In this document: in pieces, positions 3,116 to 46,976 of the stretch
How positions within the stretch are numbered: the first letter of the stretch is position 1
Layout of the letters: every line of letters starts with the position of its first letter
Origin: Candidatus Dojkabacteria bacterium
GTDB taxonomy: Bacteria > Patescibacteriota > Dojkabacteria > SC72 > JAHDCA01
DNA: 46,976 bases
Assembly (NCBI GenBank): GCA_027036675.1
Contig: JALWDW010000005.1
Coordinates: 1 to 46,976, forward strand
Direction of reading: 5' to 3'
Made by a program: the position numbers and the translations under genes
Notes under the pieces: model-generated
The model's input: the letters and a program-made list of their open reading frames with translations, nothing else
Told to the model about the DNA's origin: nothing
Databases searched by the model: none

Positions 3116-4324
3116 TCACCGTAGAGTGTCTGCAATGCAATTTTCCATACCGTGTCGCTTCACGACCTTGTCTACGGCCTCCGTTATGCGTCGTACAAAC
3201 TCGTCCCTGCCATAAAGTTCCGCCCTCCGCCTAAGTGCATCCCGCCTAAACTGCGTTGACTCGAAACCGTCCATGATATCCGCCAGTTGTGCGGTCGTAT
3301 GAAAAATATACCCATACTTTGATCGACATGGAGGCTTGTCAGTAGGTGCGAAGTCCAATACCTCACGTATGGCGCCTCTATCATAGCCGATCACAGGACA
3401 TCCGTATGACAAAGCCTCCACGGTCACAAGGCCAAAATCCTCCTCCGTTGGAAACACCACCGCTTGCGCCTGACGGTACAATCCGATAAGCTCCGAGTCC
3501 GAAACATGCCCCGTAAAATAGATATTGTCGTGGCCTTTGGCAAGCCTCTTCAGACGTTTCGTGGCGGGACCGCGCCCCGTGATCAGCAAGTGCTTCCCTG
3601 TCTTGATACCCGCACGAATCGCAGTCGCTATGTTTTTGTAATCGTAATGCCTTGCCACAACCAAGAAGAATTCCTCCGGCAACGACTTTCCCTCCGTTAC
3701 CGACACTGCGGTTTCGACATCGCCGGTCAATGTGGTGCACGGGTAAATAACTTCGTCAGGTGTCCGCCTATAGTACTTCTCAATCTTCTGCGATATATAT
3801 TGGGAAATCGCTATCATATAATCAATCTTCTGCGCATAAATATAATCATATATGCGTGCCGTATGTCTTATCCGCAAAGCCACCGGCGACAAAAGCTTCC
3901 TCAACAAACCCCGGCCCACATTCAATTCCCCATCCCATAAAAACCTCGGCGGAGTCAGGATAATACCGATATGAGGAGTACTGTAATCCGTGACGATCCT
4001 TTTGGATACTCCGGCCGAAACTGAAATCACCATATCGTATCCCGAGGTATCGTAATTCTCAAACCCCATATATGCCACCGAGTTGAAATAACGGTATATC
4101 TTCCTGACAAAAGGAAGTTTTTGGATAAAAGTTGTTTTGATTTTGCTGACATACTCTTCAGAATATTCATAGTTTTCCGGGAAAAACACCGTAGTCAGTA
4201 CCTCTGCAGAGGGGAATATATCAACCAATGCCTCGACCAAGCGATCAGCTCCGCCGGGCGACGCCATCCAATCGGTCGTGATCAGGACCTTCAAGTCCTT
4301 AGTCGATTTGTGTGAATTCCGCAT
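3116..4324 (-). CDS. Glycosyltransferase, GT-B fold, family 4-like
   Basis: It contains EEDFGLVTVEALSYGCPVIGYDRGAIREVL. The longest ORF starts at GTG 4348. I prefer ATG 4324 (MRNSHKSTKDLKVLITTDW), which lies 7 nt downstream of a perfect TATAAT at 4332-4337. Confidence 0.85.
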   Translation of the reverse strand: MRNSHKSTKDLKVLITTDWMASPGGADRLVEALVDIFPSAEVLTTVFFPENYEYSEEYVSKIKTTFIQKLPFVRKIYRYFNSVAYMGFENYDTSGYDMVISVSAGVSKRIVTDYSTPHIGIILTPPRFLWDGELNVGRGLLRKLLSPVALRIRHTARIYDYIYAQKIDYMIAISQYISQKIEKYYRRTPDEVIYPCTTLTGDVETAVSVTEGKSLPEEFFLVVARHYDYKNIATAIRAGIKTGKHLLITGRGPATKRLKRLAKGHDNIYFTGHVSDSELIGLYRQAQAVVFPTEEDFGLVTVEALSYGCPVIGYDRGAIREVLDFAPTDKPPCRSKYGYIFHTTAQLADIMDGFESTQFRRDALRRRAELYGRDEFVRRITEAVDKVVKRHGMENCIADTLR

Positions 4325-4380
4325 GATAGAGATTATACCCCAGAACACACCGATCCCCTAAATTCTATTTTCGCGACGGC

Positions 4381-4700
4381 GAAGCCGGTCTGCGTCCCCG
4401 AGGCAGAGCCCAACCTTTGGAGTGAATGCCTGTCTCTACGGGACTGGCAGATGAAAATCCGTGACTTTGCGTGTACGTAAAAGTTCCCAAGTGCACTGCG
4501 CATCCCTCTCAGTACAGTGATAGAGCTTTTGAGAATGTCCCTGCCGATGCATGTACGACACAACAAGCTTACGACGAGCGAAGCCGGGCTTCGATCCCAT
4601 GGTAGTGCCCCAACCTTTGGAGCAAAAGGCTGAGCCCGCAATAAGAAAAAACCGTGGCTGTGCACTCATGCGCGAGAGGACGAGCATACAGCCTCTCCCA
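4381..4700. repeat. Two diverged tandem copies of a ~200-bp noncoding unit (4381-4579 and 4580-~4700)
   Basis: Both units begin with GAAGCCGG. Both carry the identical 14-mer CCCAACCTTTGGAG exactly 200 bp apart (4409-4422 and 4609-4622). Further shared blocks follow: AAAATCCGTGAC / AAAAACCGTGGC and GTGCACT..GCGC. Unit 2 starts with the perfect 7-1-7 palindrome CGAAGCCGGGCTTCG (4579-4593). Confidence 0.7.
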
Positions 4701-4733
4701 CGACCCTACGGTCGGGGACTTACGCCGGAGGGA

Positions 4734-5330
4734 CTAAAGGGAAGGTAAACTATCATCATCGCCCATCATCGCATTTGCCAGGGCTTCGACATCCTCACCA
4801 TCGGATGACTCATCCAACAACGCAAGAGCGTCCTCAAGATCCACATTATTTTCTGACTCGCCATCATCCGAACCGGTACCATAATCCGTAGCATCCTCCG
4901 GGAATATATCATCCAATTCAGACGCAAAGGCCACAATATCCGAGTCAAGCCCCAGGCTGTCCACAGCAGCTTCTTCTATCGCTTCCACAGAGTCGCGCCG
5001 CTTCCCCACCCCAGCCTTTGGCGACATCGCACCGCTTATCTGAATCTCAACATCATCTGCACCGTCGTCAAAATCTTCACCCACAAAATGAGAAGTCTTA
5101 CGTGTCGTTTTGGCATTTTTCTTGGATTGCAAAAGATCGAGGTACTTTTCAGCTTCATCGTCAAATTTCTCGATCACCTCTAGGACACGCAATGACGGAG
5201 GACAAATCATATACGATTGATTTTCGTCCGGGTCCACCATAGGATCGTTGGGCGCAAACACTATGATTTGCACCCTCTTGCGTTTGGCATTCGCAACGTC
5301 CTTGACTTTTCGTGTTTTTGGGGCAGCCAT
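4734..5330 (-). CDS. Hypothetical protein with a basic N-terminus and a strongly acidic C-terminal half
   Basis: This is a 198-aa ORF in the same orientation as secA and just downstream of it. The N-terminus is MAAPKTRKVKDVANAKRKR and the C-terminal half is D/E-rich (SDDGESENNVDLEDALALLDESSDGEDVE). I recognised no family. Confidence 0.55.
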   Translation of the reverse strand: MAAPKTRKVKDVANAKRKRVQIIVFAPNDPMVDPDENQSYMICPPSLRVLEVIEKFDDEAEKYLDLLQSKKNAKTTRKTSHFVGEDFDDGADDVEIQISGAMSPKAGVGKRRDSVEAIEEAAVDSLGLDSDIVAFASELDDIFPEDATDYGTGSDDGESENNVDLEDALALLDESSDGEDVEALANAMMGDDDSLPSL

Positions 5331-5416
5331 AAAAACACTTTATATATTAAAAACTCTATCCTTCTATGAAAGAATAGCATATCGGAATACGTATAGCAAA
5401 CACCCTATAGCCACTG

Positions 5417-8400
5417 TCAATTCTTACCGTGGCACTTTTTATATTTTTTGCCACTACCGCATGGGCACGGATCATTTCGACCAACCTTGCGAACATTGCG
5501 TACGGTAGTTTGCTTACCGGCAGTGGAATTACTCGCATTTTCTTTCCCATGTACGCGCAATACCTTTTGCACCGCATCTTGTGTGGCCTCCTCCGTCGAT
5601 TGTCGTCTAAACTGTGTTGACGGAGCGGGATGAGTATCCGTCACCTGAGCTGGAGGTCGAGATTGCCTGATCATCCTGATTTTGTAAAATCGCCCGATGA
5701 CTTGTTCTTCCACGTTGCGTAACATCTGTTCAAACAACGAGAAACCTTCATTTTTGTACTCAACCAACGGGTCCTTCTGAGCAAAACTCCTCATATTTAT
5801 CCCCTCGCGCAAATCTTGCATCGTATCCAGGTGTTCCATCCAGATCTGGTCCAAAGTATCTAGCAGAAGTACTTTGGAAAGTCGCGTAAGATTTGGTTCG
5901 CGCAACGACTTCGCATGGAAAATATACGCAGCTAATATCAATTTCAACAATAAGTTCTCTTTTTCGACGGTATCATCAAAGTTATGAACCGCATCCATCA
6001 AGTCTGAAAAACTTTCATACCCGAGCAGGCCTGCGGAAATTTTCGCAAGATCTTCACCTAAAAGGCTTTTGACAGCTGTCTCTACATTTTTCTCTTCAGC
6101 GTCATCCACCTGCATGTCATCACGCAATTGATTCGCAAACAAGGTTCGTACGTACTCTACAGTCTTTTTCAGCACCCACAAAGCGTTTGGCGAATCGATT
6201 CCCAACTCCGAAAGTACCGGTACTTCCCATGTTTTGTCATTGCGCAATTCAAATTTATCCAAGTGCTCCAAGACATGAGCGATATCCATATCTTGTATTT
6301 GATTTCGGAGCTCCTGGACTGTTTTGGCATCCAGCGGTTCGTTGGGTTGAAGGTCTTGCCCGTCATCTCTTGTTTTGGCCACCTCTAGGATATGCCTTCG
6401 CAGTGAGTAAATTATATTTCTTTGTTGATTCAGCACATCGTCGTATTCGACAAGTCTTTTTCGAGTGTCATAGTTGTAAGCTTCCACTTTCTTTTGAGCG
6501 TTTTCGATTGTTTTGCCCAAAAGCTTGACGGATACCGGCATATCGTCGGACATCCCCACCTTACTCATGATATTCGCCATGGAATCACCTCCAAACAGAC
6601 GCATCAGTTCATCTTCAAAAGACACATAGAAACGAGATAAACCAGGATCGCCTTGTCGTCCGGACCGTCCGCGAAGCTGGTTGTCGATTCGCCTTGATTC
6701 GTGCCTTTCAGAACCTATGACATAGAGTCCGCCCAATTCAGCGACTCCTTCGCCCAACGCTATATCCGTACCACGTCCGGCCATATTTGTAGCGATCGTC
6801 ACCTGCCCTTTTTGCCCTGCTTCACGCACTATTGCCGCCTCTTTCTCGTGTTGTTTGGCGTTCAACACATTATGCGGTATTCCCTCTTTGGCCAGCATAT
6901 CCGACAATCTTTCCGACTTTTCGATAGATGTCGTGCCCACAAGTACAGGTTGTCCCCTTTTGTGAGCTTCGATGATATCTCGCGCTATCGCCCTAAACTT
7001 GCCCTGCTCCGTCCGATATACCATGTCCGTTTTATCTTCCCGGATGACGGGCTTATTGGTCGGGATCACCACCACATCCAGATCGTAGATATTGGCGAAC
7101 TCTTCGGCCTCGGTCAACGCAGTCGCCGTCATACCGGCCAAATGCTCGTACAAACGGAAATAATTTTGCAATGTGATCGTTGCCAGTGTCCGCGATTCTT
7201 TCTTGACCTCCACGCCCTCTTTCGCTTCGATAGCCTGATGTAAACCTTCGGAAAACCTCCTACCTTCCATTGCCCTGCCTGTGAACTCGTCGATAATGAT
7301 GACTTCCCCGTCACGCACGATATATTCATCGTCCAATTTGTACAACCCGCGGGCTTTCAATGCATTGTCCAGATGATAGGCTAGTTGTGCGTCTTCATAC
7401 AAATTTGATACTCCCAGCGTTTTTTCCACCTTGGAGACACCTTGTTCGGTCAATAGTACGGCCCTGTCCTTTTCATCTACAGTGAAGTCTTCCTCTGGGA
7501 CGAGGTCGCGGACTATGGCCGCAAATTTCACGTACAGTTGATTGGAATCCGATGCGTTTTGCGAGATGATCAACGGCGTCCTGGCTTCATCTATAAGTAC
7601 CGAGTCCGCCTCGTCGATTATTGCGTAATGTAACCTCTTTTGCACACGTTCCGCAAGTGTCTTAGCCATATTGTCACGCAGATAATCGAAACCGAATTCA
7701 TTGTTTGTACCGTATACTATGTCGCAGTTGTAAACCTCTTTCTTGTCGACCTTCAACAGATTTGATCCATTCAACATATCTGTTTTCAAGATCCCCTTTT
7801 CCGTCGCTCGTCGTTGCCTTTCTTGCACCAATTCGTATGCTTCCGCGCCTTTAAGATCTTTGACATCTTCGTCAGGTATGAATTTGTACTGTTCATTGTT
7901 GTTGATAGCACCGACGCTTATACCGAGTGAATGTAGGATATAGCCGTTCCATTCGGCATGCAATCTTGCGAGATAATCGTTAACTGTGACCAAGTGGGCG
8001 CCCTTACCAGTCAAAGCGTATACATACAGAGGGAGATTGGCGGCGTTTGTTTTACCTTCACCTGTGAAAAGCTCTATCAATTTGCCATGGAAAAGGAAGT
8101 ATCCTGCGATGACCTGGACGTCAAAATGCCTATGGTTTGCTACACGTTTGGTAGCTTCTCGCACAACGGCAAAAGCTTCCGGCAATATTTCATTCAATAC
8201 CTCCCGTTCTTTTTTCAACTCCTCGGCCGTGTACTGATACGTGGGATCACCCGCTTTTTCCGGATCGTAATTCAGCATCTCGCGAAACTTCACAGTCCTT
8301 GCGGCCAGTTCATCATCGGAGAGAGCCGATATTTCCGGTTCCCAAGCGTTTACTTGCTCAAGAAACTTGTATCCCGCTTTAAGCTCCTTTTCATTGCTAT

Positions 8401-8437
8401 CGAACAATTTGGTCAATTTTTCCACTACACCCAGCAT
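5417..8437 (-). CDS. secA: Preprotein translocase ATPase SecA
   Basis: The ORF is 1006 aa. It has TGEGKT (Walker A), [29 protein letters not shown] and the C-terminal zinc finger [14 protein letters not shown]. Confidence 0.97.
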
Positions 8438-8474
8438 ACTATCTGTTACCTACATAAATTAATACTACACGGCA

Positions 8475-8483
8475 AGTATATCA
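8475..8483 (-). promoter_or_regulatory. Candidate extended -10 promoter (TGaTATACT) for secA
   Basis: The minus strand reads ccaTGATATACTtgcc about 38-46 nt upstream of the secA ATG. The AAGCCGGGCTT palindrome (8495-8505) lies immediately upstream, in the -35 region. Confidence 0.35.
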
Positions 8484-9279
8484 TGGATACTCCCAAGCCG
8501 GGCTTCGTACCCGGGGTTAAACCCCACCCTTGTTATAGGTAAGCCTGACCTCATGGGAATAGTACCTGCAAAATCAGGATTTTCGACATCATTGCAGACA
8601 AATTGAGACACGCGGTTGACGCCTTCACCAAAGCTTTTGTGATACACATCATGTTCGTAATTCGAAATATCCTATGACTACAAGGGTTGTTCTATCGCCT
8701 ACTGTTTTCTTGCCTGGGATGTAGAAATCCGTATACTTCCGAGCAAATGCCTGGAGAGCCTACACGCCCTGAACCCAATGACAGAGCACAATCCCACAAG
8801 TAATGGGGAAGTATTGCCGACGCGACCGGTTGGCAGGGTTCTCATCCACGACAATAAAACCTCTGTAACATCACGATCCGGCTACCGACAATATAAACTC
8901 CACCTGCCAGGATCTACTCTCGCTACATTAGGAGTATCTACATCAGCGAGGGACTAAGGAGCAGACCATTTCGAGACATCCGTACTCAGCACGGAATATA
9001 TCGGACTGCGAGCCAAAGTCACTATTTTTAGTAACCGTTTTTGGCCTTTAACCCTGAATTCTTAAGTCATCGAACAATTACGTGGCATTATAGGCCAGTT
9101 ATCGTACTTCGACCGTGAGTACGAGATTTTGCAATCATGGCAGGGTGCAAGTAAACGGCAGTGATTAAGCGTGATTACATACGCACACCAAATGTACGAA
9201 TATTTAATTTCAAATTCAGAGATATTTCATATCCGTTTGTTATTCTCTGATCAAGAAATTATATTTTTGACGATTACCT

Positions 9280-12200
9280 ATGAATACTAGCACAAAAACA
9301 AGCTTCTTCAGTGTATTGCATTACGCGTTGTTGTTATCTTTATTTGTAGCAATTTGGGCGGGAATACCGACGAGGCACGTGCTTGGATATCTGCATACAC
9401 AGTCTTCGACATTGGAAATCGACGCCGATACATATATAGAGGAAAACTTCCCAGATACGGCTCCATGGAACAATCGCAATTTTTATATCGGATTGGATAA
9501 TCTATACAACAAAGGGCATACCGTGGCATATCTGCATTACAATTTGGATGGATACAGGCAATTGTTGGAAGAAGGTCGGCTACTGGAGGCAAACTTGCAA
9601 ATATTCCAATATTATCCAAGCAACGGACAACCGTACACATTGAATATCTCTATTCCTTATGGCACTTGGGACGAAGAAAATCTGACATGGCACGACAATA
9701 TTCCCACATCGCAATATTCGACGGACATAAACCTGAGTGGCGGAGTCGGATACAAATACTTGGATATCGCGTCACTGATCCGCCTGCAGGCGCTAAACGG
9801 CTCGCTACAGGACAACGGCTTACGTCTGGCCCAGGCGGATGACAACGAGCACAGCAAGGTCTATTGGTCTATCGCATGCCTCAACCCACCCACCGGGGTC
9901 GGTTGCGTGGACGGGCAACAACCCAAGATCAGCTTATTGTTCGACGTCAACAACCCTCCGCCCACGCCATCCCCATCGTCTCCCACGAGCGGTCTGCTGT
10001 CCGGCCGATCGGACATCACCACGAGCTGGGACGCTGTGGACGATCCAGATGGAGATAACATCACATATACTCTCCAAGTTTCAACCTTACCGAGTTTTAC
10101 GTCGATCGCATACGAACATGATACGGATTCAACAAGCCTGGAGATAGGCCCGTTGGAAGACGGAGACTATTTTTGGCGACTCCGGGCCGGTGACGGAGAG
10201 AGAAACTCAGATTGGAGTAGTGCATACGGATTCACAATTGATACGGAAAATACCACAAAAATCAATTTGGTGGACGAACCAGAGTTGACGTATGGCAATG
10301 AAAACACAATTCGATGGAGTATTGTTGAATTGGATGAACATATTCATTCGGGTTTGCTTGAAGTATCAAAGGAAGCGGATTTTCCGGACGAGCTTACGCG
10401 TCAAGTGACTCTATCGTACGAACAGCTGAACTTGGGAGAAATTACAATTTCCGATCTTGCAGACGGGCAAGAATACTTCTACAGATTGAGAACCGATGAC
10501 GAAGTAGGGAATTTATCTCAATGGACGAATACCGTATCTTCCACTCAAGACCAATCACCACCGATTTTTGCGGACTTTCAGGCATCTCAACTATATATCT
10601 CACCGACAACAAGCCCAGGAATATTGGATGAAACGGAGATCTCTTTTCAAATTGACGACTTGACTGAAGTACAATGGACTTTGACATGGAGTAACGGAGG
10701 AAATAGTGGTGTCATCGCACAAACTGACGGATCAGATATTGACGGCAACCGTCATACTATCATATGGAAGCCCCTCGATTTAAGCGACGGAGATTACCTG
10801 CTGCAATTGACCGCATCCGACAAATTCGCACAAACATCTCAAAGTGATATCATTCTCGTACATATCGACAACACGCCTCCCAAGTCTCCTCATATCAAGG
10901 TTCCGCAAGACGGATATCGCACAAACAAAGACTCCGTATATTTTACTGCTGATTGCCCACGGGTCGCATCGCACCAAGTTTTGTTGGATACACGTATCGT
11001 ATATGATACATGCGACGAACAACTCATCGATATATCCGACTTAAATGACGGCCCGCATACATTATCCGTACAGTCGACCGACCGCGCCGGGAATACATCC
11101 AGCGAAGCTGTCACGTTTTCAATCGACAGGACACCACCCCGTACGCCGGATTTTGAGATCAACGCTGTCGGATCTGAACTCTATTTGGACGTCAAACCGG
11201 GTAGTACGTATAATAACCTGTCGATATTCACCAAGGCGGGAATGCTGTTGCAATCTGGTCCCAGCGTTACTCATATCAGACTTCGAGACAATTGGAGCTA
11301 CAATACAGTCTACGAATATCGCATCCGTGTATCCGACGAGTTGGGCAACACAAGCAATTTCTCAGACTGGCGAAGCTTCAAACGTATGCACGAAACACGT
11401 GTCGGCGGTGGCAACGATGACCCTACCATAAGCACGGAGTTACCCGCGGCCGAAATTTGCAATCTCACTTACGATATGAATAAACGAGCTCTGTACAGGG
11501 ATGAATGCCATGCTCCCGCACCCGTACTTGCCTCCGCAATCACTCAATCATCCGATGGCAAACAATGGATAACCTTCGGTATAGGACGTGTCAATCGACA
11601 TATACAGGCACATATACGATATATACAGTGTAAAAAACGATCGTGGCGAGACCCGCTCACATGGTTCCGTTGCGTTTCCGAGGAAGTGAAAACTGTAAAC
11701 ACGTCGATAACGCCAACAATTTCCTTCTCCGTCAATACCGGAGAATACTTGAGTACTCGTACGATTTTGGTACAAAGCGGCATCGATGACGGGTTAGTAA
11801 AATACCAGGCCTTTTCCAAAAGCAAGCCCTCCTCCCCCACCGCGTATATGACAGCTTATACTGACGCAAATATCAATGTGGAGGGCAATCTATATGATCT
11901 GCAGTTGGCACCGGTGAATTCAAATACCGTTACTATCGATTTCAAAAGTGTCGATTCGATCAAACAGGCACATGGTAAACAATTTCGATTCCCATTCGAC
12001 CATATAGTGGGGGTCACACAATGGCACGGACATACCGCATATGATCCCAACCATACGGGGATTGATTTCGGTGCGGTAAGAGAACCCATATATGCGATGG
12101 ATGACGGTTTCGTGCGGTACATAGGGTATGATACGTATTACGGACGTTGCAATAGCGGTGGAAATACCTTACGTATCGAGCACGACAACGGTATGCAAAC

Positions 12201-12529: not shown

Positions 12530-13372
12530 ATGAAATACAAAATAAAATCCATTTTATCCCTTCTAATCGTCCTTCTATCAATCGTAGTTCTGTTAATAAT
12601 CGGGTGGATCATTGTATCTTTGAACTCCGCCCCCGAGGGGAATGAAATGCATACTACCGCGCAAAATGAATTGGTAGAAGACCGACTATACACGATCGGT
12701 CAACTTGACGAGGACCCTCACAAGCCTTTGGAGACACGTTTTGGGTGGATTACTTCGGATACAGCATATCTCGTCACAGAGGATGCACTTGAGCTATATG
12801 ACCCGAAGTCAAGACAGGTGACAAATACCGATCTGTTGTTGAAGGAGAAAAGCATTATCTCAGTAAATTCCCCTCAAGAAGCTTTCATTTGTGAGTGGTC
12901 AAACAAAGACAGGCACGACGAATCCGACTACGGCACCAATATCAATATAGTCAGAGTCGACCTTGAGAGTCTTTTGAACAATGGCGCGACCCAACCCCAA
13001 GTAAAATCAATCGGATGGACACGCACAGTACAGATCAAACCCCTTCTGCAACCATTGTCGTGCGACGCAAAGTCTATCCGCTTGCAGGAGTATTTGCCGG
13101 TCTATGAGTATGCACAGTATCTGTATGATTTGGAAACAGGTACCTTGGCAAAATCAGACGAGGACAACACCGGCAACGATTGCACTTTGACTGCAAGTCA
13201 GACGGATCCCCGCGGTTCGGCCCAACCCGAAAAGACGGTGATCTCTTGCAACGGTGCTTCGCCGATTACAATCTCAGCTCCGGGGGTTGAATTTATATCG
13301 GCAAAGCTTGATCCAACAAACACAAAATACTTGATTTTGGATACGAACCTTCGCGTTTGGTATTACCACTGA
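12530..13372 (+). CDS. Hypothetical protein with an N-terminal membrane anchor
   Basis: This is a 280-aa ORF starting 43 nt after the M23 gene. It has an N-terminal TM segment (ILSLLIVLLSIVVLLIIGWIIV). A TATAAT box at 12519-12524 lies 5 nt before the ATG. I recognised no family. Confidence 0.6.
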   Translation: MKYKIKSILSLLIVLLSIVVLLIIGWIIVSLNSAPEGNEMHTTAQNELVEDRLYTIGQLDEDPHKPLETRFGWITSDTAYLVTEDALELYDPKSRQVTNTDLLLKEKSIISVNSPQEAFICEWSNKDRHDESDYGTNINIVRVDLESLLNNGATQPQVKSIGWTRTVQIKPLLQPLSCDAKSIRLQEYLPVYEYAQYLYDLETGTLAKSDEDNTGNDCTLTASQTDPRGSAQPEKTVISCNGASPITISAPGVEFISAKLDPTNTKYLILDTNLRVWYYH

Positions 13373-15325: not shown

Positions 15326-15673
15326 AATTATATATGTGCTTTTATCTTAATTTTATCGATCCTCCGGATTACCGGTGTCATTACGGTATTGAAACAATGG
15401 AATAAGTAAAGACGATACTGAGCGAGTCTTCAGAATTCGATTGATTTCAACCCTATGTTAAGATGATAACATATCACATACATATTTCAAACGGTCGCAA
15501 ATTCTATTTCCGATTGCATCGGGGCTCAACTTCTCAATGTTGATTCCCAAGCCGGGACGTGGTATTCTGTATTACTCTACAAAGAGACCGATTGCTCTTA
15601 ACTTTACTAGCTCTACGGTTAAGTCAGTTCGTGGAGTACGAGTGGAGAAGTATAAATTATCAAAAACCTGCCC

Positions 15674-17260
15674 ATGCAAAAAGAATATATCCAATTAGGA
15701 AACAAAGACGTGTTCAACGGCCAATATATGTTGACTGCATTTCGTATAGAAGGGTACGACGGGAAGTCAATTTTGGACGTTGCAAGTGAGGTTGTGGCCG
15801 AATCATCAAACGGATCGAATGTACACGTCGGCTCAGGCACTTCATTTTCAGCGACAATGGGGGGTATCGTATATGAGGCGGATGAGTCCAAAAACCTTAT
15901 CTACGTCGCATACCCGTGGAGAATGTTTGATAGCGGTGGTAATGTGCAAAATATCATGACATTCATAGCCGGAAACATATTCGGCATGAGTTCGCTCAAG
16001 CAACTTAAACTTCTGGATGTATATTTCCCACCTCAGATGTTGCAACAATACGACGGGCCCAGCACAACAATCGACGACATGCGCAATTATCTGCAGGTTT
16101 ACGATAGCCCGATCCTCGGTACGATCATCAAGCCGAAAATAGGTTTGACCGCATCCGAATATGCCGAACTTTGCTACGATTTCTGGGTGGGTGGCGGTCA
16201 TTTCGTCAAAAACGATGAACCCCAGGCCGACCAGGATTTCTGTCCGTACTTCAAAATGGTTGACGGGATCCGCAGCGCGATGGACAAAGCCGAAGATGAA
16301 ACCGGACAGACAAAAGTTCATTCGTTCAACGTATCCTCGGCCGATTTTGATACAATGATACGTAGAGCCGATTACGTGTATTCCAAGATGCGCCCTGGTA
16401 GTTTTGCCTTCTTGATCGACGGAATCACAGCTGGATGGATGGCAGTACAGACTTTGCGCAGGCGTTATCCTGACGTATTTATCCATTTCCACCGGGCGGG
16501 TCACGGTGCGTATACACGCAGAGAAAACCCGTTTGGTTTTACCGTACCTGTGTTGACGAAATTCGCAAGACTTGCAGGAGCCTCGGCAATCCACACAGGC
16601 ACGCTCGGTGTCGGGAAGATGCAAGGGGATGTGAATGAAGACGGTACGGCCATGCAACAAGGTTTGCGTATACAAGCGCAAGGGCCGTATTTCAAACAGA
16701 CATGGTCCAAAGTATCGGAAGAAGACAGCGACTTGGAAACTATGATACGAGCCGAAGCCAAAATGTGGGAAGCCGGCCCGAGAGAAGTCAGCGATTTAAG
16801 GTCCAAGATAAACCATATGGATCCGCATACCAAACATGCTCACGCAGATTGGAGGCTTATCAAAAAGACCGCCCCGATAGCCTCCGGCGGACTTAATCCG
16901 GTATTATTGCCACGGCTTATCGACGAAGCCGGCACTATCGACTTCATCACCACAATGGGCGGGGGTACACATTCGCATCCGATGAAGACAGCAGCCGGTG
17001 CCAAGGCCATCGTGGAAGCTTTTCATGCGTGGAAACATGGACACACTTTACTGGATGAAGCTCACGACCATGTGGGACACGACACTGAATTGCAAAGCGC
17101 GATACGGTTCTTCGAAAAGCATGGGGTACATCTGACAGAGGAAGATCACCGCAATATCGGTGATGCTCCTGATGATGCTCAGCCGGTCGCACAAAGTCCG
17201 ACTACACATTCACAGCCGATACACGATCACCCTGATGATGCGTTCCCTAGTCAAGGGTAA
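15674..17260 (+). CDS. rbcL: Ribulose-1,5-bisphosphate carboxylase large subunit, form II or II/III-like
   Basis: It contains GTIIKPKIGL, the form II-type carbamylation/metal motif FVKNDEPQ, HFHRAGHGA and PIASGG. A roughly 45-50-aa insertion lies between ...KQTW and KKTAPIASGG. There is also a C-terminal His/Pro/Asp-rich tail (DAPDDAQPVAQSPTTHSQPIHDHPDDAFPSQG). Confidence 0.92.
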   Translation: MQKEYIQLGNKDVFNGQYMLTAFRIEGYDGKSILDVASEVVAESSNGSNVHVGSGTSFSATMGGIVYEADESKNLIYVAYPWRMFDSGGNVQNIMTFIAGNIFGMSSLKQLKLLDVYFPPQMLQQYDGPSTTIDDMRNYLQVYDSPILGTIIKPKIGLTASEYAELCYDFWVGGGHFVKNDEPQADQDFCPYFKMVDGIRSAMDKAEDETGQTKVHSFNVSSADFDTMIRRADYVYSKMRPGSFAFLIDGITAGWMAVQTLRRRYPDVFIHFHRAGHGAYTRRENPFGFTVPVLTKFARLAGASAIHTGTLGVGKMQGDVNEDGTAMQQGLRIQAQGPYFKQTWSKVSEEDSDLETMIRAEAKMWEAGPREVSDLRSKINHMDPHTKHAHADWRLIKKTAPIASGGLNPVLLPRLIDEAGTIDFITTMGGGTHSHPMKTAAGAKAIVEAFHAWKHGHTLLDEAHDHVGHDTELQSAIRFFEKHGVHLTEEDHRNIGDAPDDAQPVAQSPTTHSQPIHDHPDDAFPSQG

Positions 17261-19560: not shown

Positions 19561-20844
19561 TCAACGTTGCAAATTATATTCTCTCAACACATCCAGCAAA
19601 GTCCCGTCACCACCCAAACGCCAGTACACCACCCCGGCAATATCATAACTCGTCACCAGATCAAAATGGTCGGACACCGACTCCTTCGACTGAAAATACA
19701 TGGTACATTGAATATGATTCCCACACTCATAGATGCTCATCGACTCACCTGTGGAGGCTATATACGATTGCTCCGTCTGCTCACCGAGGATGTCGGCGAC
19801 TTGCGTGTAAGTGTAAGAAGCCCGCCGACCGTCTGTACCCCATTCGTAAGCATACAACGGCAGACCGATTATCAATTTGTCCGCGGGTATGCGATCTTTT
19901 GCATAATCCATGATCTTAGTCAGCCAACCGGTCGGGGACACTGGACCGGGGTCGGGGTCGGCGGTATTGGTATAGTCGTAAGCCATCACTCGTACATAAT
20001 CCGCAATTTCCGCAATCCTAGCCCAGTCTTGCACCTGCCTTGTCTCAGGCGAGGACGAATAGGACACCCTACCCCATTTTGGTAATACAGTTACCGACAA
20101 AATCTTGTCCTTACGATGTAGTTTCCCTGCCAGCGCATCCAACATGAGAAAATAATTTTCTTTATCCTGCAAATATATTTGTTCGTAATCCAGATCTATA
20201 CCGTCGTATCCGTACGCATCCACTTCGTATACGATAGAGTTGATATGTCGCGTCATATTAACATCGGAATCCAGTACGGAATGCATCGTATCAGCGTCAA
20301 ACAAAGACACGGTAGGCACAACCGATATATCCCTATCCTCCTTCAAGTTCAACAGCTCTTTGTAAGTACCGGGTCGGCTGATTATCAAATCACCGTTGTT
20401 GTTCACATGGTACCAAACGGGAGATACCAAATTGACGAAAGAGTACCTCTTCACCGATTGCACACCCGCAGTATAATCCCATTGAGGTATCCACCCGCCG
20501 ATCAGCAAAGATCCACTACTACCCGTATCATTACCTACATCTTTTTCCTCGTCAACCGAAGACGATGATTTTTGGGTAATAATTTCTGTCTTATCCTCGC
20601 TCACGGGGTTTTGTGAATGATACTTTTCCACGTCAAACGGTACAAAATCGTCATCTTCGACCGCCTGTTGCACTGTAGTCCCCGTTTTTCCCGAGTCAGC
20701 CCCTGGCAACCATGTTTGCAATTTCGCATCCAGAACCGGTGAATAATTCTGATACAATAAGAAAGCTACAGATAAAACCAGCAATACAAATACGGCTTCT
20801 TTCAAAGATTTCAAGACTTGATAATTTCGCTTTTTCCCCTTCAT
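19561..20844 (-). CDS. Glycoside hydrolase family 18-like protein, membrane anchored
   Basis: It has an N-terminal TM helix and the GH18 catalytic motif YGYDGIDLDYE (DxxDxDxE). It starts 38 nt after ftsI, and tatD follows 6 nt later. Confidence 0.8.
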   Translation of the reverse strand: MKGKKRNYQVLKSLKEAVFVLLVLSVAFLLYQNYSPVLDAKLQTWLPGADSGKTGTTVQQAVEDDDFVPFDVEKYHSQNPVSEDKTEIITQKSSSSVDEEKDVGNDTGSSGSLLIGGWIPQWDYTAGVQSVKRYSFVNLVSPVWYHVNNNGDLIISRPGTYKELLNLKEDRDISVVPTVSLFDADTMHSVLDSDVNMTRHINSIVYEVDAYGYDGIDLDYEQIYLQDKENYFLMLDALAGKLHRKDKILSVTVLPKWGRVSYSSSPETRQVQDWARIAEIADYVRVMAYDYTNTADPDPGPVSPTGWLTKIMDYAKDRIPADKLIIGLPLYAYEWGTDGRRASYTYTQVADILGEQTEQSYIASTGESMSIYECGNHIQCTMYFQSKESVSDHFDLVTSYDIAGVVYWRLGGDGTLLDVLREYNLQR

Positions 20845-24107: not shown

Positions 24108-24542
24108 CTACACATTCTGAATTCCAGTCAGCCTTTGCGCCACTTCGCTTACGTTTTTGGCCAACTGATCCACTTTATTTTCCCACTTAGCTTTGTCCCA
24201 CACTTCTATCCAATTGATCAGACCTATGAAGACAATATCCGAATCAAGTTCCGCATATTGCCTCAACGCCTTGGGGATCACAAAACGTCCCTGTGCGTCA
24301 AGTTCGATTTCCTGAGCGCCCCCGACCAGAAATCTGGTGGAGTCTCGGACATCGGCATTTATGAAAGAGCCTTCGACGACTTCACGCGTGATAATGTCCC
24401 ACCGTGTTTTGTCTACGATCACCAAAGTTCCTTCAAAACCTCTTGTCAGGATGATTTCACCTGCAAATGCTTCTCGGAACTTCTTGGGGAATGCTGTTCT
24501 CCCCTTCGTATCGATTTTGGTAGCGATTTCTCCGGTAAGCAT
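24108..24542 (-). CDS. mraZ: Transcriptional regulator MraZ
   Basis: It has two SpoVT/AbrB-like halves with DTKGRTAFPKKFRE and DAQGRFVIPKALRQ. I set the start to ATG 24542 (MLTGEIATKID). The longer ORF reaching 24599 would run into the predicted operator. Confidence 0.92.
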   Translation of the reverse strand: MLTGEIATKIDTKGRTAFPKKFREAFAGEIILTRGFEGTLVIVDKTRWDIITREVVEGSFINADVRDSTRFLVGGAQEIELDAQGRFVIPKALRQYAELDSDIVFIGLINWIEVWDKAKWENKVDQLAKNVSEVAQRLTGIQNV

Positions 24543-24593: not shown

Positions 24594-24618
24594 CCCCACT
24601 TTTCACCACCCATCACCA
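24594..24618 (-). promoter_or_regulatory. Predicted MraZ operator: three direct repeats TGGTG-N5-TGGTG-N5-TGGGG
   Basis: The minus strand reads agTGGTGatgggTGGTGaaaagTGGGGagg. The repeat starts are exactly 10 bp apart (24618, 24608, 24598). The site lies immediately downstream of the -10 box. This matches the published TGGGN-N5 triple-repeat architecture of MraZ operators. Confidence 0.55.
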
Positions 24619-24623
24619 CTATC

Positions 24624-24652
24624 AATTTACACGCTATCGGGACCGGTGTCAA
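24624..24652 (-). promoter_or_regulatory. Sigma-70-type promoter of the mraZ operon (TTGACA-N17-TAAATT)
   Basis: On the minus strand, TTGACA lies at 24647-24652 and TAAATT at 24624-24629, separated by a 17-nt spacer. The -10 box is about 80 nt upstream of the mraZ ATG. Confidence 0.6.
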
Positions 24653-24731
24653 GAATGTTTTCAGACCCGGGGTCGAAACCCAACCTTTGAACAGAAACCT
24701 CGTCGTGACAGCGGTGGTAACACGAAAATCG

Positions 24732-24755
24732 GGATTTTGCATATATGCAAAATCC
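24732..24755. repeat. Perfect 24-bp palindrome GGATTTTGCATATATGCAAAATCC
   Basis: Read directly from the sequence; the 12+12 halves have no mismatch. On the minus strand the hairpin is followed by cgATTTTcg. It therefore could act as a terminator or insulator upstream of the mraZ promoter, or as a dimer-binding operator. Confidence 0.9.
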
Positions 24756-25103
24756 GGCATGTGTACGGTATTTTTAGGTTTCGTGCCATGACGACGGGCT
24801 TTGTACGTAACACCCCGGATGGCTGTTGCAGACATGATTTAGCGTGGATGGTGCTCCCCACCCCTCGGCAGATTTCCTGTGACAGAGCCACTATTGGAGT
24901 CTATGCCTGTCTGACCTATATACAAAAGGTTAGGCTGCCGTTCGACTGCGCCGTATTAGCGGGTCGGACGCCTTGCCACCTTCGGTCGATGGAGAACAGA
25001 GTCCTTTTCCGACCTTCGGGTCGGGGTGCAGGGCTAGCTACGACGCTCAGCCGACCTTTTTGGCAACCATTCATCCTCAGGCTCGGGTACCACGCCGGGC
25101 ATA

Positions 25104-25360
25104 CAGGTCGGTCTCCGCCCGCGGGTGGGGGTGTCGGCCACAGTGCTTCATCCGCCCGTTGGCCAAACCTCCGGGCTCAAAGTGCGGGGAACCGTATCGG
25201 TCGTCAGGTCGGTCTCCGCCCGCGGGTGGGGGTATCGACCACAGTGCTTCATCCGCCCATTGGCCAATCCTCCGCCTCAAAGTGCGGGGAACCGTATCGG
25301 TCATCAGGTCGGTCTCCGCCCGCGGGTGGGGGGTTGCCACAAACCCGCTTCTTCAGCCCG
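25104..25360 (+). repeat. GC-rich tandem repeat with period 100-101 bp, about 2.5 copies
   Basis: Units start with CAGGTCGGTCTCCGCCCGCGGGTGGGGG at 25104, 25205 and 25305. Units 1 and 2 are near-identical over about 100 bp. Unit 3 diverges after about 30 bp. Weaker similarity extends upstream to about 25060. Confidence 0.9.
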
Positions 25361-25740
25361 CAGTCCTGATGACACGCAGAGAACGCTAAACGACATAAAA
25401 ACCTCAGTACTCGCGAGACACACGGAAATCGTACACTGTCACAAGGATCGGGACAAGCAGACCTCTCCGATCTCTACGATAGATGGTGAGTAGAACCGCT
25501 ACCAGAGTGACAAACCTACGATAGCCCCGAAAGCCCTGGTATCACGGACAAGTTTACACACTGCAAAGTGAGTTCCCCGCAACCGTTTTCACAATAGCCT
25601 AAATCGGTTATCAGATTCACATCGCAAAAAACATCGAGATTCCCGATTTTCGGCCTGTTATGCTCATATCAACAAGCTTCAGACTCAAAGGGTGGGTACA
25701 ACCCCCGGGTCCGAACCCCGGCTTCGTGTCAGTTCCATCC

Positions 25741-25765
25741 AAAAAAAAATGGGGATCCAACCCCA
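25741..25765 (-). terminator. Intrinsic terminator downstream of murA
   Basis: The minus strand reads TGGGGTTGGATCCCCA followed by a run of nine T. It begins about 30 nt after the murA stop. Confidence 0.7.
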
Positions 25766-32004: not shown

Positions 32005-33423
32005 CTATTTCACCGATTTCCCGTTAGATTTCTCTGTGTTTATATTTCCCAATTCTTCTTGTACTACGGCAACATCGTCCCACGGTATTTCGTGGATCCC
32101 GTCAATATTCATACTTTGTTCATGACCTTTACCGGTGATCAAGACAAGTGACCCGGGTTTGGCAAGTTGCAATGCTTGCCGTATCGCTTCGCGCCGATCG
32201 GGGATATCATATACTTCCACCTTCCGTCCACTGTCTTCCAACTCTCGATCTATACCACGCCTGATTTCACTATTTATTTTCTTGACCGATTCGCCTCTAG
32301 GATCTTCCGCAGTCAGTATCACCATGTCGGCGTAGCGGGAGGCCCATTTCCCCATTTCGGGCCTTTTGTATGTATCCCGCTTGGACGCCGCGCCGAAGAC
32401 TACGATGAGTTGCTTGTTCTCTTGTATGTCTCGAGCATATTTCAGCACTTGATGCAGGCTGTTTGGCGTGTGGGCAAAGTCCACGACTACGGAGTACGGT
32501 CGGGTTTGGATAATTTGCCATCTCCCCCTCAGGCCATGCAGAGAGGACAACGCTTTGACTGCGTCACGGGGTGCGACGGCCAACGCCGCCGCCGCGACAG
32601 CGGCGGCGGCGTTGTATGCGTTGTAAACTCCGCCCACCGGCAATCGCACAGCATACCGCTCGGATACTTCCGCATGAGTCTCATTTTGACCACGAACGAT
32701 AAGGTCAAATGATACGTGATTGATGTCCTCCGCCTTGATATGCTCGATCTTATAATCACAATCCTCATTCGTACCATACGTGCGAAGTTGAATATCCGGA
32801 GCTTGGGCCGATATTTGTTTGTACTTAGACAATAACCGGTCAAAACTTTTGTCGTCCCGATTTAATACCGCAAGACCTCCGGGTTTCAGTTTCTCGATCA
32901 GTCGTCCTTTGACATTGACAAGGTTCTCGTACGTACCGTGGTGGTCCAAATGTTCGTTGGATATATTGGTAAAGACGGCGACTTCGAATTTAATTCCCTC
33001 GACCCTATGTTGGTAAAGCCCGTGTGATGTTGTTTCCAAGACGACATACTTCAGTCCTTTTTTGACCGCTTGTGCCAAAAGCTTCTGCAAGACCCGCGGG
33101 TCGGGGTTGGTCACATGGAGCCCGGTGGGAGATGTATCGTCACCCAATTTCGCGGCTATGGTAGATATCAACGCAACTTTCCCAAGGTTCTCGTTTAGTA
33201 TATGGTAGATCATCGTAGATGTAGTGGTCTTCCCGTCGGTCCCCGTCACACCGATCACCGTCAGTTTCCGTGCGGGGAACCGATAGTACAGGTTCCAAAA
33301 CCACGCCTTAGGCAAATGCCAGAAGGTGTTGATCAGGGCCTGGCATTTGAAGTCGGGGTTCAACCCCAGGGTTGAACCCCAGGCTTGACATATGTGCGTA
33401 ACCACTCTGCGGATTCTCGACAT
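32005..33423 (-). CDS. murE: UDP-N-acetylmuramoyl-L-alanyl-D-glutamate--diamino acid ligase MurE
   Basis: It contains VIGVTGTDGKTTTSTMIYHIL, the Mur ligase central and C-terminal domains, and EDPRGE where DAP-type MurE enzymes carry DNPR. Confidence 0.88.
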   Translation of the reverse strand: MSRIRRVVTHICQAWGSTLGLNPDFKCQALINTFWHLPKAWFWNLYYRFPARKLTVIGVTGTDGKTTTSTMIYHILNENLGKVALISTIAAKLGDDTSPTGLHVTNPDPRVLQKLLAQAVKKGLKYVVLETTSHGLYQHRVEGIKFEVAVFTNISNEHLDHHGTYENLVNVKGRLIEKLKPGGLAVLNRDDKSFDRLLSKYKQISAQAPDIQLRTYGTNEDCDYKIEHIKAEDINHVSFDLIVRGQNETHAEVSERYAVRLPVGGVYNAYNAAAAVAAAALAVAPRDAVKALSSLHGLRGRWQIIQTRPYSVVVDFAHTPNSLHQVLKYARDIQENKQLIVVFGAASKRDTYKRPEMGKWASRYADMVILTAEDPRGESVKKINSEIRRGIDRELEDSGRKVEVYDIPDRREAIRQALQLAKPGSLVLITGKGHEQSMNIDGIHEIPWDDVAVVQEELGNINTEKSNGKSVK

Positions 33424-44887: not shown

Positions 44888-45192
44888 TCGCACTTGCTCA
44901 AGACTTACACACCCTCGAAACTGTTCTGACGAAGATCCATTAGCAGGACGCGGTGTGCTGATCTACCCACGCATAATGTATGCATATTGCGCTCGAAGGT
45001 GGGTCATGATGCAAATTGATTGGCAAGCTTCTTGTTTGGGTAACCGCTAAATTCCCTCTTTTGGCCGTCCGGTATCGTATCGAGTAAATCAAGCTCGGAT
45101 TAATGTGACGAAGGTTACTCAGCGAAAGCAATATCCGTAGAAGTGCCAAGAGTCCTCCTCCATAGCACATTGATTTAGCTTGATTGTCGTAG

Positions 45193-46947: not shown

Positions 46948-46976
46948 TTGAACAATGTTTATAATTTATGTACGGG

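Follow-up and report, generated by a model that had tools for sequence, protein, structure and literature searches.

The window, by which we mean the whole stretch of 46,976 nucleotides that was analysed, carries housekeeping genes: secA, the mraZ-mraW-ftsL-PBP gene group, murA, murB, a murE-like gene, mraY, murG, ftsW, recO and an aminoacyl-tRNA synthetase gene. A form II/III-type RuBisCO gene lies at 15674-17260 and corresponds to the rbcL of the original prediction, and the sole Rfam match at gathering score in the window is a tRNA-Lys at 1217-1289. No transposase, recombinase, integrase or RAYT (Y1 transposase) was found within the 47-kb window. The MurE-like ligase gene (32005-33423, minus strand) directly follows mraY and encodes a protein without the N-terminal domain; its homology to solved structures starts at residue ~43 of the open reading frame, equivalent to residue ~92 in the enzyme of Thermotoga. 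The gene that immediately follows the PBP gene, where a Mur ligase would usually be found, encodes a glycoside hydrolase family 18 protein (19561-20844, minus strand).

Near-identical DNA was found in hydrothermal-vent metagenomes only. The closest SecA proteins are only 59% identical, and those bearing a name belong almost all to Candidatus Dojkabacteria (WS6), with one from Nomurabacteria, so that the host represents a divergent lineage of the Patescibacteria (CPR). Genomes of CPR/Patescibacteria are small and compact, and to our knowledge their non-coding DNA has been little studied.

The intergenic regions of the window harbor a family of related sequences, which was originally predicted from five main copies. 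All five were located at the predicted positions, four on the minus strand and one (copy E) on the plus strand, and a sixth copy (copy F) was found in addition, which gives a density of approximately one copy per 8 kb. Copy A' (4380-4482, minus strand, core 4380-4422; nhmmer E-value 6e-26, or 6e-13 when left out of the model) lies 31 nt 5' of the GTG start codon of a GT4 glycosyltransferase gene (3116-4348). Copy B' (4579-4680, minus strand, core 4579-4622; E-value 3e-6 when left out) is arranged in tandem with A', about 54 nt past the stop codon of a gene encoding 198 amino acids, and includes the palindrome CGAAGCCGGGCTTCG; as predicted, 4579-4593 forms a perfect 7-1-7 palindrome. Copy C' (8493-8593, minus strand, core 8493-8535; E-value 3e-26, or 7e-13 when left out) ends 55 nt 5' of the secA ATG (8437). 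Copy D' (24645-24752, minus strand, core 24650-24692; E-value 4e-25, or 1e-11 when left out) is located upstream of mraZ. It contains the palindromes TTTTGCATATATGCAAAA and AAAATCCCGATTTT, and in its diverged 3' end a TTGACA -35 box takes the place of CCGGCTTCG. Copy E (25624-25726, plus strand, core 25684-25726; E-value 1e-25, or 4e-12 when left out), the sole copy in the opposite orientation, lies 68 nt past the murA stop codon and is inverted with respect to D', the two 5' ends facing each other across 870 nt and a set of tandem repeats. Copy F (33348-33390, minus strand; E-value 3e-6 to 5e-4) consists of the core only and is found between the mraY stop codon (33455) and the homologous part of the MurE-like gene.

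The intergenic location that had been proposed for the family was borne out, since all five unambiguous copies fall in the non-coding 11% of the window (P ~2e-5). Copy F lies inside the longest open reading frame of the MurE-like gene, at codons 12-26. Since no part of this frame before residue ~43 is homologous to solved MurE structures, F is most likely situated in the leader, and a possible TTG start codon lies 32 nt downstream. The copies are, on the other hand, less widely scattered than the "at least five long gaps" of the original prediction, as they occupy only three long gaps and one gap of 139 nt.

Alignment beyond the 11-15-nt cores had been set beforehand as the refutation test for the family, and the copies were found to align over approximately 95-105 nt. 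When 60 nt of the upstream sequence was included, the five copies could be aligned over about 105 nt with a mean column identity of 65%, and an A/T palindrome, AAAATC-NN-GATTTT, and the motif CAGGCTT appeared as further common boxes. An nhmmer profile built from this alignment detected the five copies with E-values of 1e-22 to 1e-26 and copy F with an E-value of 7e-6. When each copy was omitted from the model in turn, it was recovered every time (E-values 3e-6 to 6e-13, alignments of ~95 nt), and copy F was recovered in every run. With up to two mismatches allowed, the palindrome CGAAGCCNGGCTTCG was found four times, whereas dinucleotide-preserving shuffles predict 0.08 occurrences. The CCCAACCTTTGGAG box, allowing up to three mismatches, gave 10 matches against 3.25 expected and is less striking by itself. 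A possible weak seventh copy at 13280-13343 on the minus strand (nhmmer E-value 0.03-0.6), with AAAATCAAGTATTTT and AACCCCCGG, lies antisense within the 3' end of the open reading frame 12530-13372.

The shorter partial copies that had been listed together with the main ones did not hold up. The 11-mer at 15546-15556, upstream of rbcL, gave no match to the profile and varies between strains at three of its 11 positions; we also considered it as the remnant of a deletion and rejected this, since it varies in this way and the element is present there in no strain. The match at 44994-45006 is at chance level. Those at 25178-25189 and 25278-25289 represent the start of a 100-bp tandem-repeat unit which has only its first ~14 nt in common with the element. 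This unit is present in three tandem copies at 25075-25340 (94-98% identity, 56% G+C) within the 1.25-kb gap between mraZ and murA, and it matches no family in Rfam or Pfam. Its copy number varies between strains, one of which also lacks 25477-25579. The unit starts with a box resembling the CTCAAAGGGTGGG of the element; in two other strains it begins with CTCAAAGGGCGGGTAA, which agrees with the 5' box of the element at 14 of 16 positions, and nothing further aligns.

The full element is about 100-125 nt long and is built as a fixed chain of short palindromes. From 5' to 3' it comprises the palindrome AAAATC-NN-GATTTT, a spacer of ~10 nt, a G+C hairpin with a T-tract and the 43-nt core, which in turn consists of CTCAAAGGNTGGG, two GGGn...nCCC mini-palindromes of the form GGGTnnnnACCC and the terminal CGAAGCC-N-GGCTTCG. 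Some copies carry an additional palindrome 5' of this chain (TTTTGCATATATGCAAAA in D'). The similarity among the copies always stops at ...GGCTTCG, and the 3' end is thus sharp. On the 5' side, copies from the metagenomes read AGCCCGTGGCGACGGGC-TTTCGT followed by (GA)CTCAAAGG, that is, a G+C hairpin and a short T-tract, whereas the window copies contain a degenerate form of this segment (GTCCCGTAGAGACAGGCATTCA in A'). The order of the modules (palindrome, hairpin with T-tract, core) is the same in A' to E and in the flanks of the metagenome copies; truncated variants are D' at its 3' end and F, which is reduced to the core. The originally proposed layout, in which CAAAGG(G/T)TGGG is followed after 20-21 nt by CCGGCTTCG, describes A', B' and E well. 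It does not describe C', which reads CAAGGG and CTTGG, or D', which is without the 3' box.

Copies of the element are also present outside the window. The assembled contigs of run X1, which contains 98% of the window's words, were compared with the copies. In X1, at least 10 further contigs match the core of E with 4-7 mismatches in 43 nt, two match the core of B' and four the core of F, and one contig of X4 matches the core of C'. The two B'-like contigs match 4579-4620 or 4579-4628, and in both the similarity begins exactly at 4579. At least 17 further contigs with the 43-nt core are thus found in the host's metagenomes, or at least 23 copies including those of the window, in a comparison whose floor of 80% identity must have concealed diverged copies. 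In X1 the word depth of the copy-bearing contigs (8-14) resembles that of the genome's own contigs (7-11), and in X2 both sets rise together about threefold, to 30-43 and 19-38, respectively; this equal depth and joint rise argue that the other copy-bearing contigs belong to the same genome population.

Wider searches suggested that the family is restricted to this lineage. A scan of 185,579 genomes (one per species) for the exact pattern CAAAGGKTGGG-N19-22-CCGGCTTCG gave nine matches, all single and unrelated, and the same scan of JGI metagenome contigs gave 19, again all single and unrelated; the one match that was inspected in its context lies within a coding sequence. The exact-pattern scan of viral contigs gave no match; the source genome is accordingly missing from these collections. 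No relative was found when copy E was compared by BLAST with phage and plasmid records. Since the genome, metagenome and viral collections and the BLAST search gave no relative, we regard the family as lineage-specific.

Strain variation was analyzed by comparing the window with a contig of a sister strain (L034) and with contigs of four further runs. In every strain compared, each of the six loci carries its copy, and no empty-site (insertion) polymorphism was detected; the deletions seen were internal or partial. A strain in X6 lacks 8506-8700 (195 nt) and with it most of C', while CCAAGCCGGGCTT and the -10 box are kept. A strain in X4 lacks 24725-24748, which corresponds to the A/T palindromes of D'. 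These strains indicate that upstream parts of the element are dispensable. A separate deletion of 58 nt (8758-8815) in the gap between secA and the M23 gene is common to L034 and run X2.

Copy C' is 100% identical in the window and L034, as is the core of A', and B' shows three differences. With ~20% divergence, mostly by transitions, the 102-nt spacer that separates B' from A' (4477-4578, minus strand) stands out from the DNA around it, which differs by 0-3%, and from the 840-nt gap between secA and the M23 gene, which differs by ~1.5%. The spacer contains no conserved open reading frame and has no second copy in the window. The better conservation of the elements than of the spacer hints at constraint or concerted evolution, and the diverged spacer may be an imported allele with crossovers within the repeats. 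In more distant strains the cores differ by ~3.5%, much like the gap upstream of rbcL.

Five of the six copies are co-oriented with the following gene, whose likely start codon is 31-64 nt away; the genes in question are those of the GT4 glycosyltransferase (A'), SecA (C'), MraZ (D') and the MurE-like ligase (F), while B' precedes A'. The exception is copy E, which points into the 3' end of murA and has no gene downstream. Moreover, a TAnnnT hexamer begins exactly 12 nt past the core in four of the 13 copies with a readable 3' flank, against a background of 0.016 per position; this offset was noticed after the fact, and with ~40 possible offsets the probability of its arising by chance is roughly 2e-3. 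The four boxes are TAGAAT at 4362-4367 (minus strand) past A', the hexamer of the extended -10-like box TGATATACT at 8475-8483 (minus strand) past C', TAGCGT at 24631-24636 (minus strand) past D' and TGATATAAT past an F-like copy from X1/X2. The TGn extension of a -10 box can substitute for a -35 box, and two of the four boxes have such an extension, reading TGATATA(A/C)T. After D' there is a better promoter candidate, consisting of TTGACA (24647-24652), a 17-nt spacer and TAAATT (24624-24629, minus strand).

Should the hexamer be a true -10 box, the core would span about -67 to -25 of the downstream promoter, and the -35 position would read GCCCGG, which is unlike TTGACA, the -35 box of sigma-70; a sigma-70 promoter would have its -35 hexamer 16-18 nt upstream of the -10 hexamer. 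The original remark that two copies sit at the -35 position of candidate promoters is roughly right for secA, where the element ends 12 nt before the extended -10 box TGATATACT; for rbcL it concerned a chance match. A scan of 4200-9400, which includes A', B' and C', for consensus promoters and terminators flagged no site at these copies. As to intrinsic terminators, for which a G+C hairpin and at least five T were required, the metagenome copies carry only 3-4 T (TTTCGT or TTTTGCT), and the hairpins of the window copies are degenerate.

Two neighboring signals are distinct from the element. In the stretch that separates copy E from the stop codon of murA, this gene is followed by a hairpin, GGGGTTGGATCCCC, with a run of nine T (25737-25765, minus strand), a plausible intrinsic terminator. 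The mraZ control region (24596-24652, minus strand) contains three GTGG boxes at 24616-24619, 24606-24609 and 24596-24599, 6 nt apart; three boxes spaced in this way at mraZ form the canonical MraZ operator (PMC12957436). The GTG start codon of the long open reading frame at 24599 falls inside this operator, since the last box occupies 24596-24599, and the ENA gene call places the MraZ start at 24542 (144 amino acids). MraZ was also considered as the binder of the CAAAGGGTGGG box of the element and rejected, because the core contains at most one GTGG and the true three-box operator (24596-24619, minus strand) lies downstream of D'.

The best reading of these data is that the family constitutes a lineage-specific, REP/BOX-like interspersed intergenic DNA repeat with promoter and hairpin signals within it or next to it. 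The REP-like option was one of three offered originally, and it fits best with the many homologous copies, the sharp 3' end, the chain of palindromes and the tolerance of partial deletions. Common descent of the copies follows from ~100 nt of shared, partly non-palindromic sequence at more than 20 places. The placement upstream of genes, the shared orientation and the fixed -10-like spacing suggest that the element carries or abuts promoters. It would then act as DNA and not as a folded RNA, and since it lies just upstream of genes in the same orientation, its 3' end would cover positions -35 to -25 of the promoter that follows. The element might thus represent a portable intergenic punctuation, with hairpins on the upstream side, which may limit read-through, and a promoter on the downstream side, and it might have spread by duplication or transposition. 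We consider the chances about even that it is indeed such a portable cassette acting at the DNA level, with the promoter or terminator activity and the spread that this implies.

The family is new and its host unusual, while the kind of element is already familiar. Palindromic repeats dispersed among intergenic regions are well known (PMC3184786, PMC10969869, PMC8049555), and so is the reuse of promoter regions (PMC3575422). The closest parallels are the BOX elements of Streptococcus pneumoniae and the BIME/REP mosaics of enterobacteria (reviewed in PMC3184786), which are likewise short non-coding intergenic repeats with many small palindromes in a fixed module order, present in tens to hundreds of copies per genome, with truncated variants and no gene of their own. 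The window family shares with them many intergenic copies, the same modules in the same order and truncated variants. It has no sequence similarity to BOX, BIME or REP and neither a GTAG-type REP head nor inverted doublets; in addition, its module number is invariant save for truncations, its CPR host has a small genome, and no associated transposase is known.

Like the Correia elements of Neisseria and promoter-bearing MITEs, which measure ~100-150 nt, lie beside genes and can bring promoter, hairpin or terminator signals, the family consists of short elements next to genes. Correia elements and MITEs, however, possess terminal inverted repeats as well as a TA target duplication. In copies A', B', C' and E the first 35 nt matched the reverse complement of the last 35 nt no better than shuffled sequences did, in a test for which the 5' boundary of the element is approximate only, and no direct repeat was found between their 12-nt flanks. 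Without terminal inverted repeats and target duplications the family is not a MITE. A further resemblance is to the reused or "mobile" promoters (PMC3575422), in which highly similar upstream regions precede unrelated genes in one genome; these are defined by similarity only, whereas in the window family most of the conserved part is 5' of the -10 box and no gene follows copy E.

REPIN/RAYT systems and palindromic elements derived from IS200/IS605 (PMC8049555) are also based on hairpins and have no terminal inverted repeats or target duplications. The strand bias seen in REPIN/RAYT has a counterpart in the window, where five of the six copies lie on one strand of a single replichore. Differences are that the 47-kb window contains no Y1 transposase, that no conserved target tetranucleotide was established, and that the window copies are single or, in one case, in tandem instead of in inverted pairs. 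The unit of REP/REPIN is an imperfect palindrome of 20-40 nt, usually found as inverted doublets. In the window the unit measures ~100 nt and holds four to five palindromes, A' and B' are direct repeats, and 870 nt separate the inverted copies D' and E.

Among the alternatives to such a repeat, the copies might be operators of a regulon, in which a dimeric or tetrameric transcription factor bound to the palindromes co-regulates cell-envelope genes; the sites would be AAAATC-NN-GATTTT, the two GGGTnnnnACCC units and CGAAGCC-N-GGCTTCG centred near -32, and the targets the GT4 glycosyltransferase gene, secA, the mraZ operon and murE. Several of the palindromes are indeed perfect or nearly so, their position relative to the -10-like box is fixed, the copies are co-oriented with downstream genes that are all envelope-related, and the elements are conserved between strains while the neighboring spacer is not. 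Nearly every gene of the window is envelope-related, though, so that the apparent enrichment means little. The shared sequence of ~100 nt, which is partly non-palindromic and is 84-90% identical over 43 nt in more than 10 copies, far exceeds what a binding site needs; this extent favors common descent over convergent sites. Moreover, copy E is without a downstream gene, strains lacking the upstream palindromes of C' or D' persist, and AAAATCNNGATTTT, allowing up to two mismatches, occurs only at about twice its frequency in shuffles. We therefore regard a regulon of this kind as rather unlikely.

A bolder version of the repeat reading would make it a self-propagating promoter/terminator cassette, copied by a hairpin-recognising enzyme such as a Y1 transposase acting on single strands, with neither terminal inverted repeats nor target duplications, and with the palindromes serving as a landing pad for a global regulator. 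If this were true, a tiny genome with few regulators could rewire many genes by moving one module. We rate this version as improbable.

Structured RNA, the third of the original options, has still less in its favor. The element could form the 5' leader of the downstream gene, or a small RNA could be transcribed from the opposite strand, running from CGAAGCC to the G+C hairpin. Two short G+C hairpins can be drawn in most copies (85.7% of cells paired), one G-U-compatible change occurs in the upstream hairpin of a metagenome copy, and the end at CGAAG is sharp. No Rfam family matches, however, even at an E-value of up to 10 in the gaps or in the 86 nt around copy E, and the fold z-scores of full units range from -2.3 to +0.6 over both strands. 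The earlier observation of a constant stem with a changing loop is correct but not informative, because the stems never vary and hence show no compensatory change: compensatory pairs in the hairpins number zero, and shuffles do as well, in a set of only six sequences. For the 7-1-7 pairing, 78% of cells are paired with two double changes, a value reached by 28 of 500 shuffles. The candidate -10 boxes, moreover, lie downstream of the core, which would accordingly be absent from the mRNA of the gene. An RNA role seems to us quite remote.

Least probable, and rejected here because ARAGORN and the Rfam tRNA model detected nothing at any copy (even at an E-value of up to 10 on 86 nt), is an origin from the 3' half of a tRNA, as integrase attachment-site scars or a tRNA-derived repeat with CTCAAAG as anticodon loop, CCGGG-TCCGAAC-CCCGG as T arm and CTTCG as acceptor strand: the visual resemblance (a 5-7-5 hairpin with a TnCGAAn loop, then CTTCG) stands against the missing strand complementary to the supposed anticodon stem, a homology that stops 5 nt into the supposed acceptor strand and extends ~60 nt upstream into tRNA-unlike sequence, and the absence of an integrase from the window.

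The repeat directly precedes essential genes, among them secA, the mraZ operon and the murE-like gene. If it supplies promoters or insulating hairpins, it would offer a handle on the organisation of transcription units in an uncultured lineage. Even as purely selfish DNA it would be worth knowing, since it breaks short-read assemblies and marks structural polymorphism between strains. Breaks in the Logan contigs fall within or beside copy F and within the tandem repeat that lies between D' and E. Contigs compared with the last 97 nt of the window yielded no sequence beyond it. The ENA and Logan contigs, which are independent assemblies, also both end at 46970, 23 nt upstream of a DUF7897 gene, and another copy of the repeat may lie just past the end of the window.
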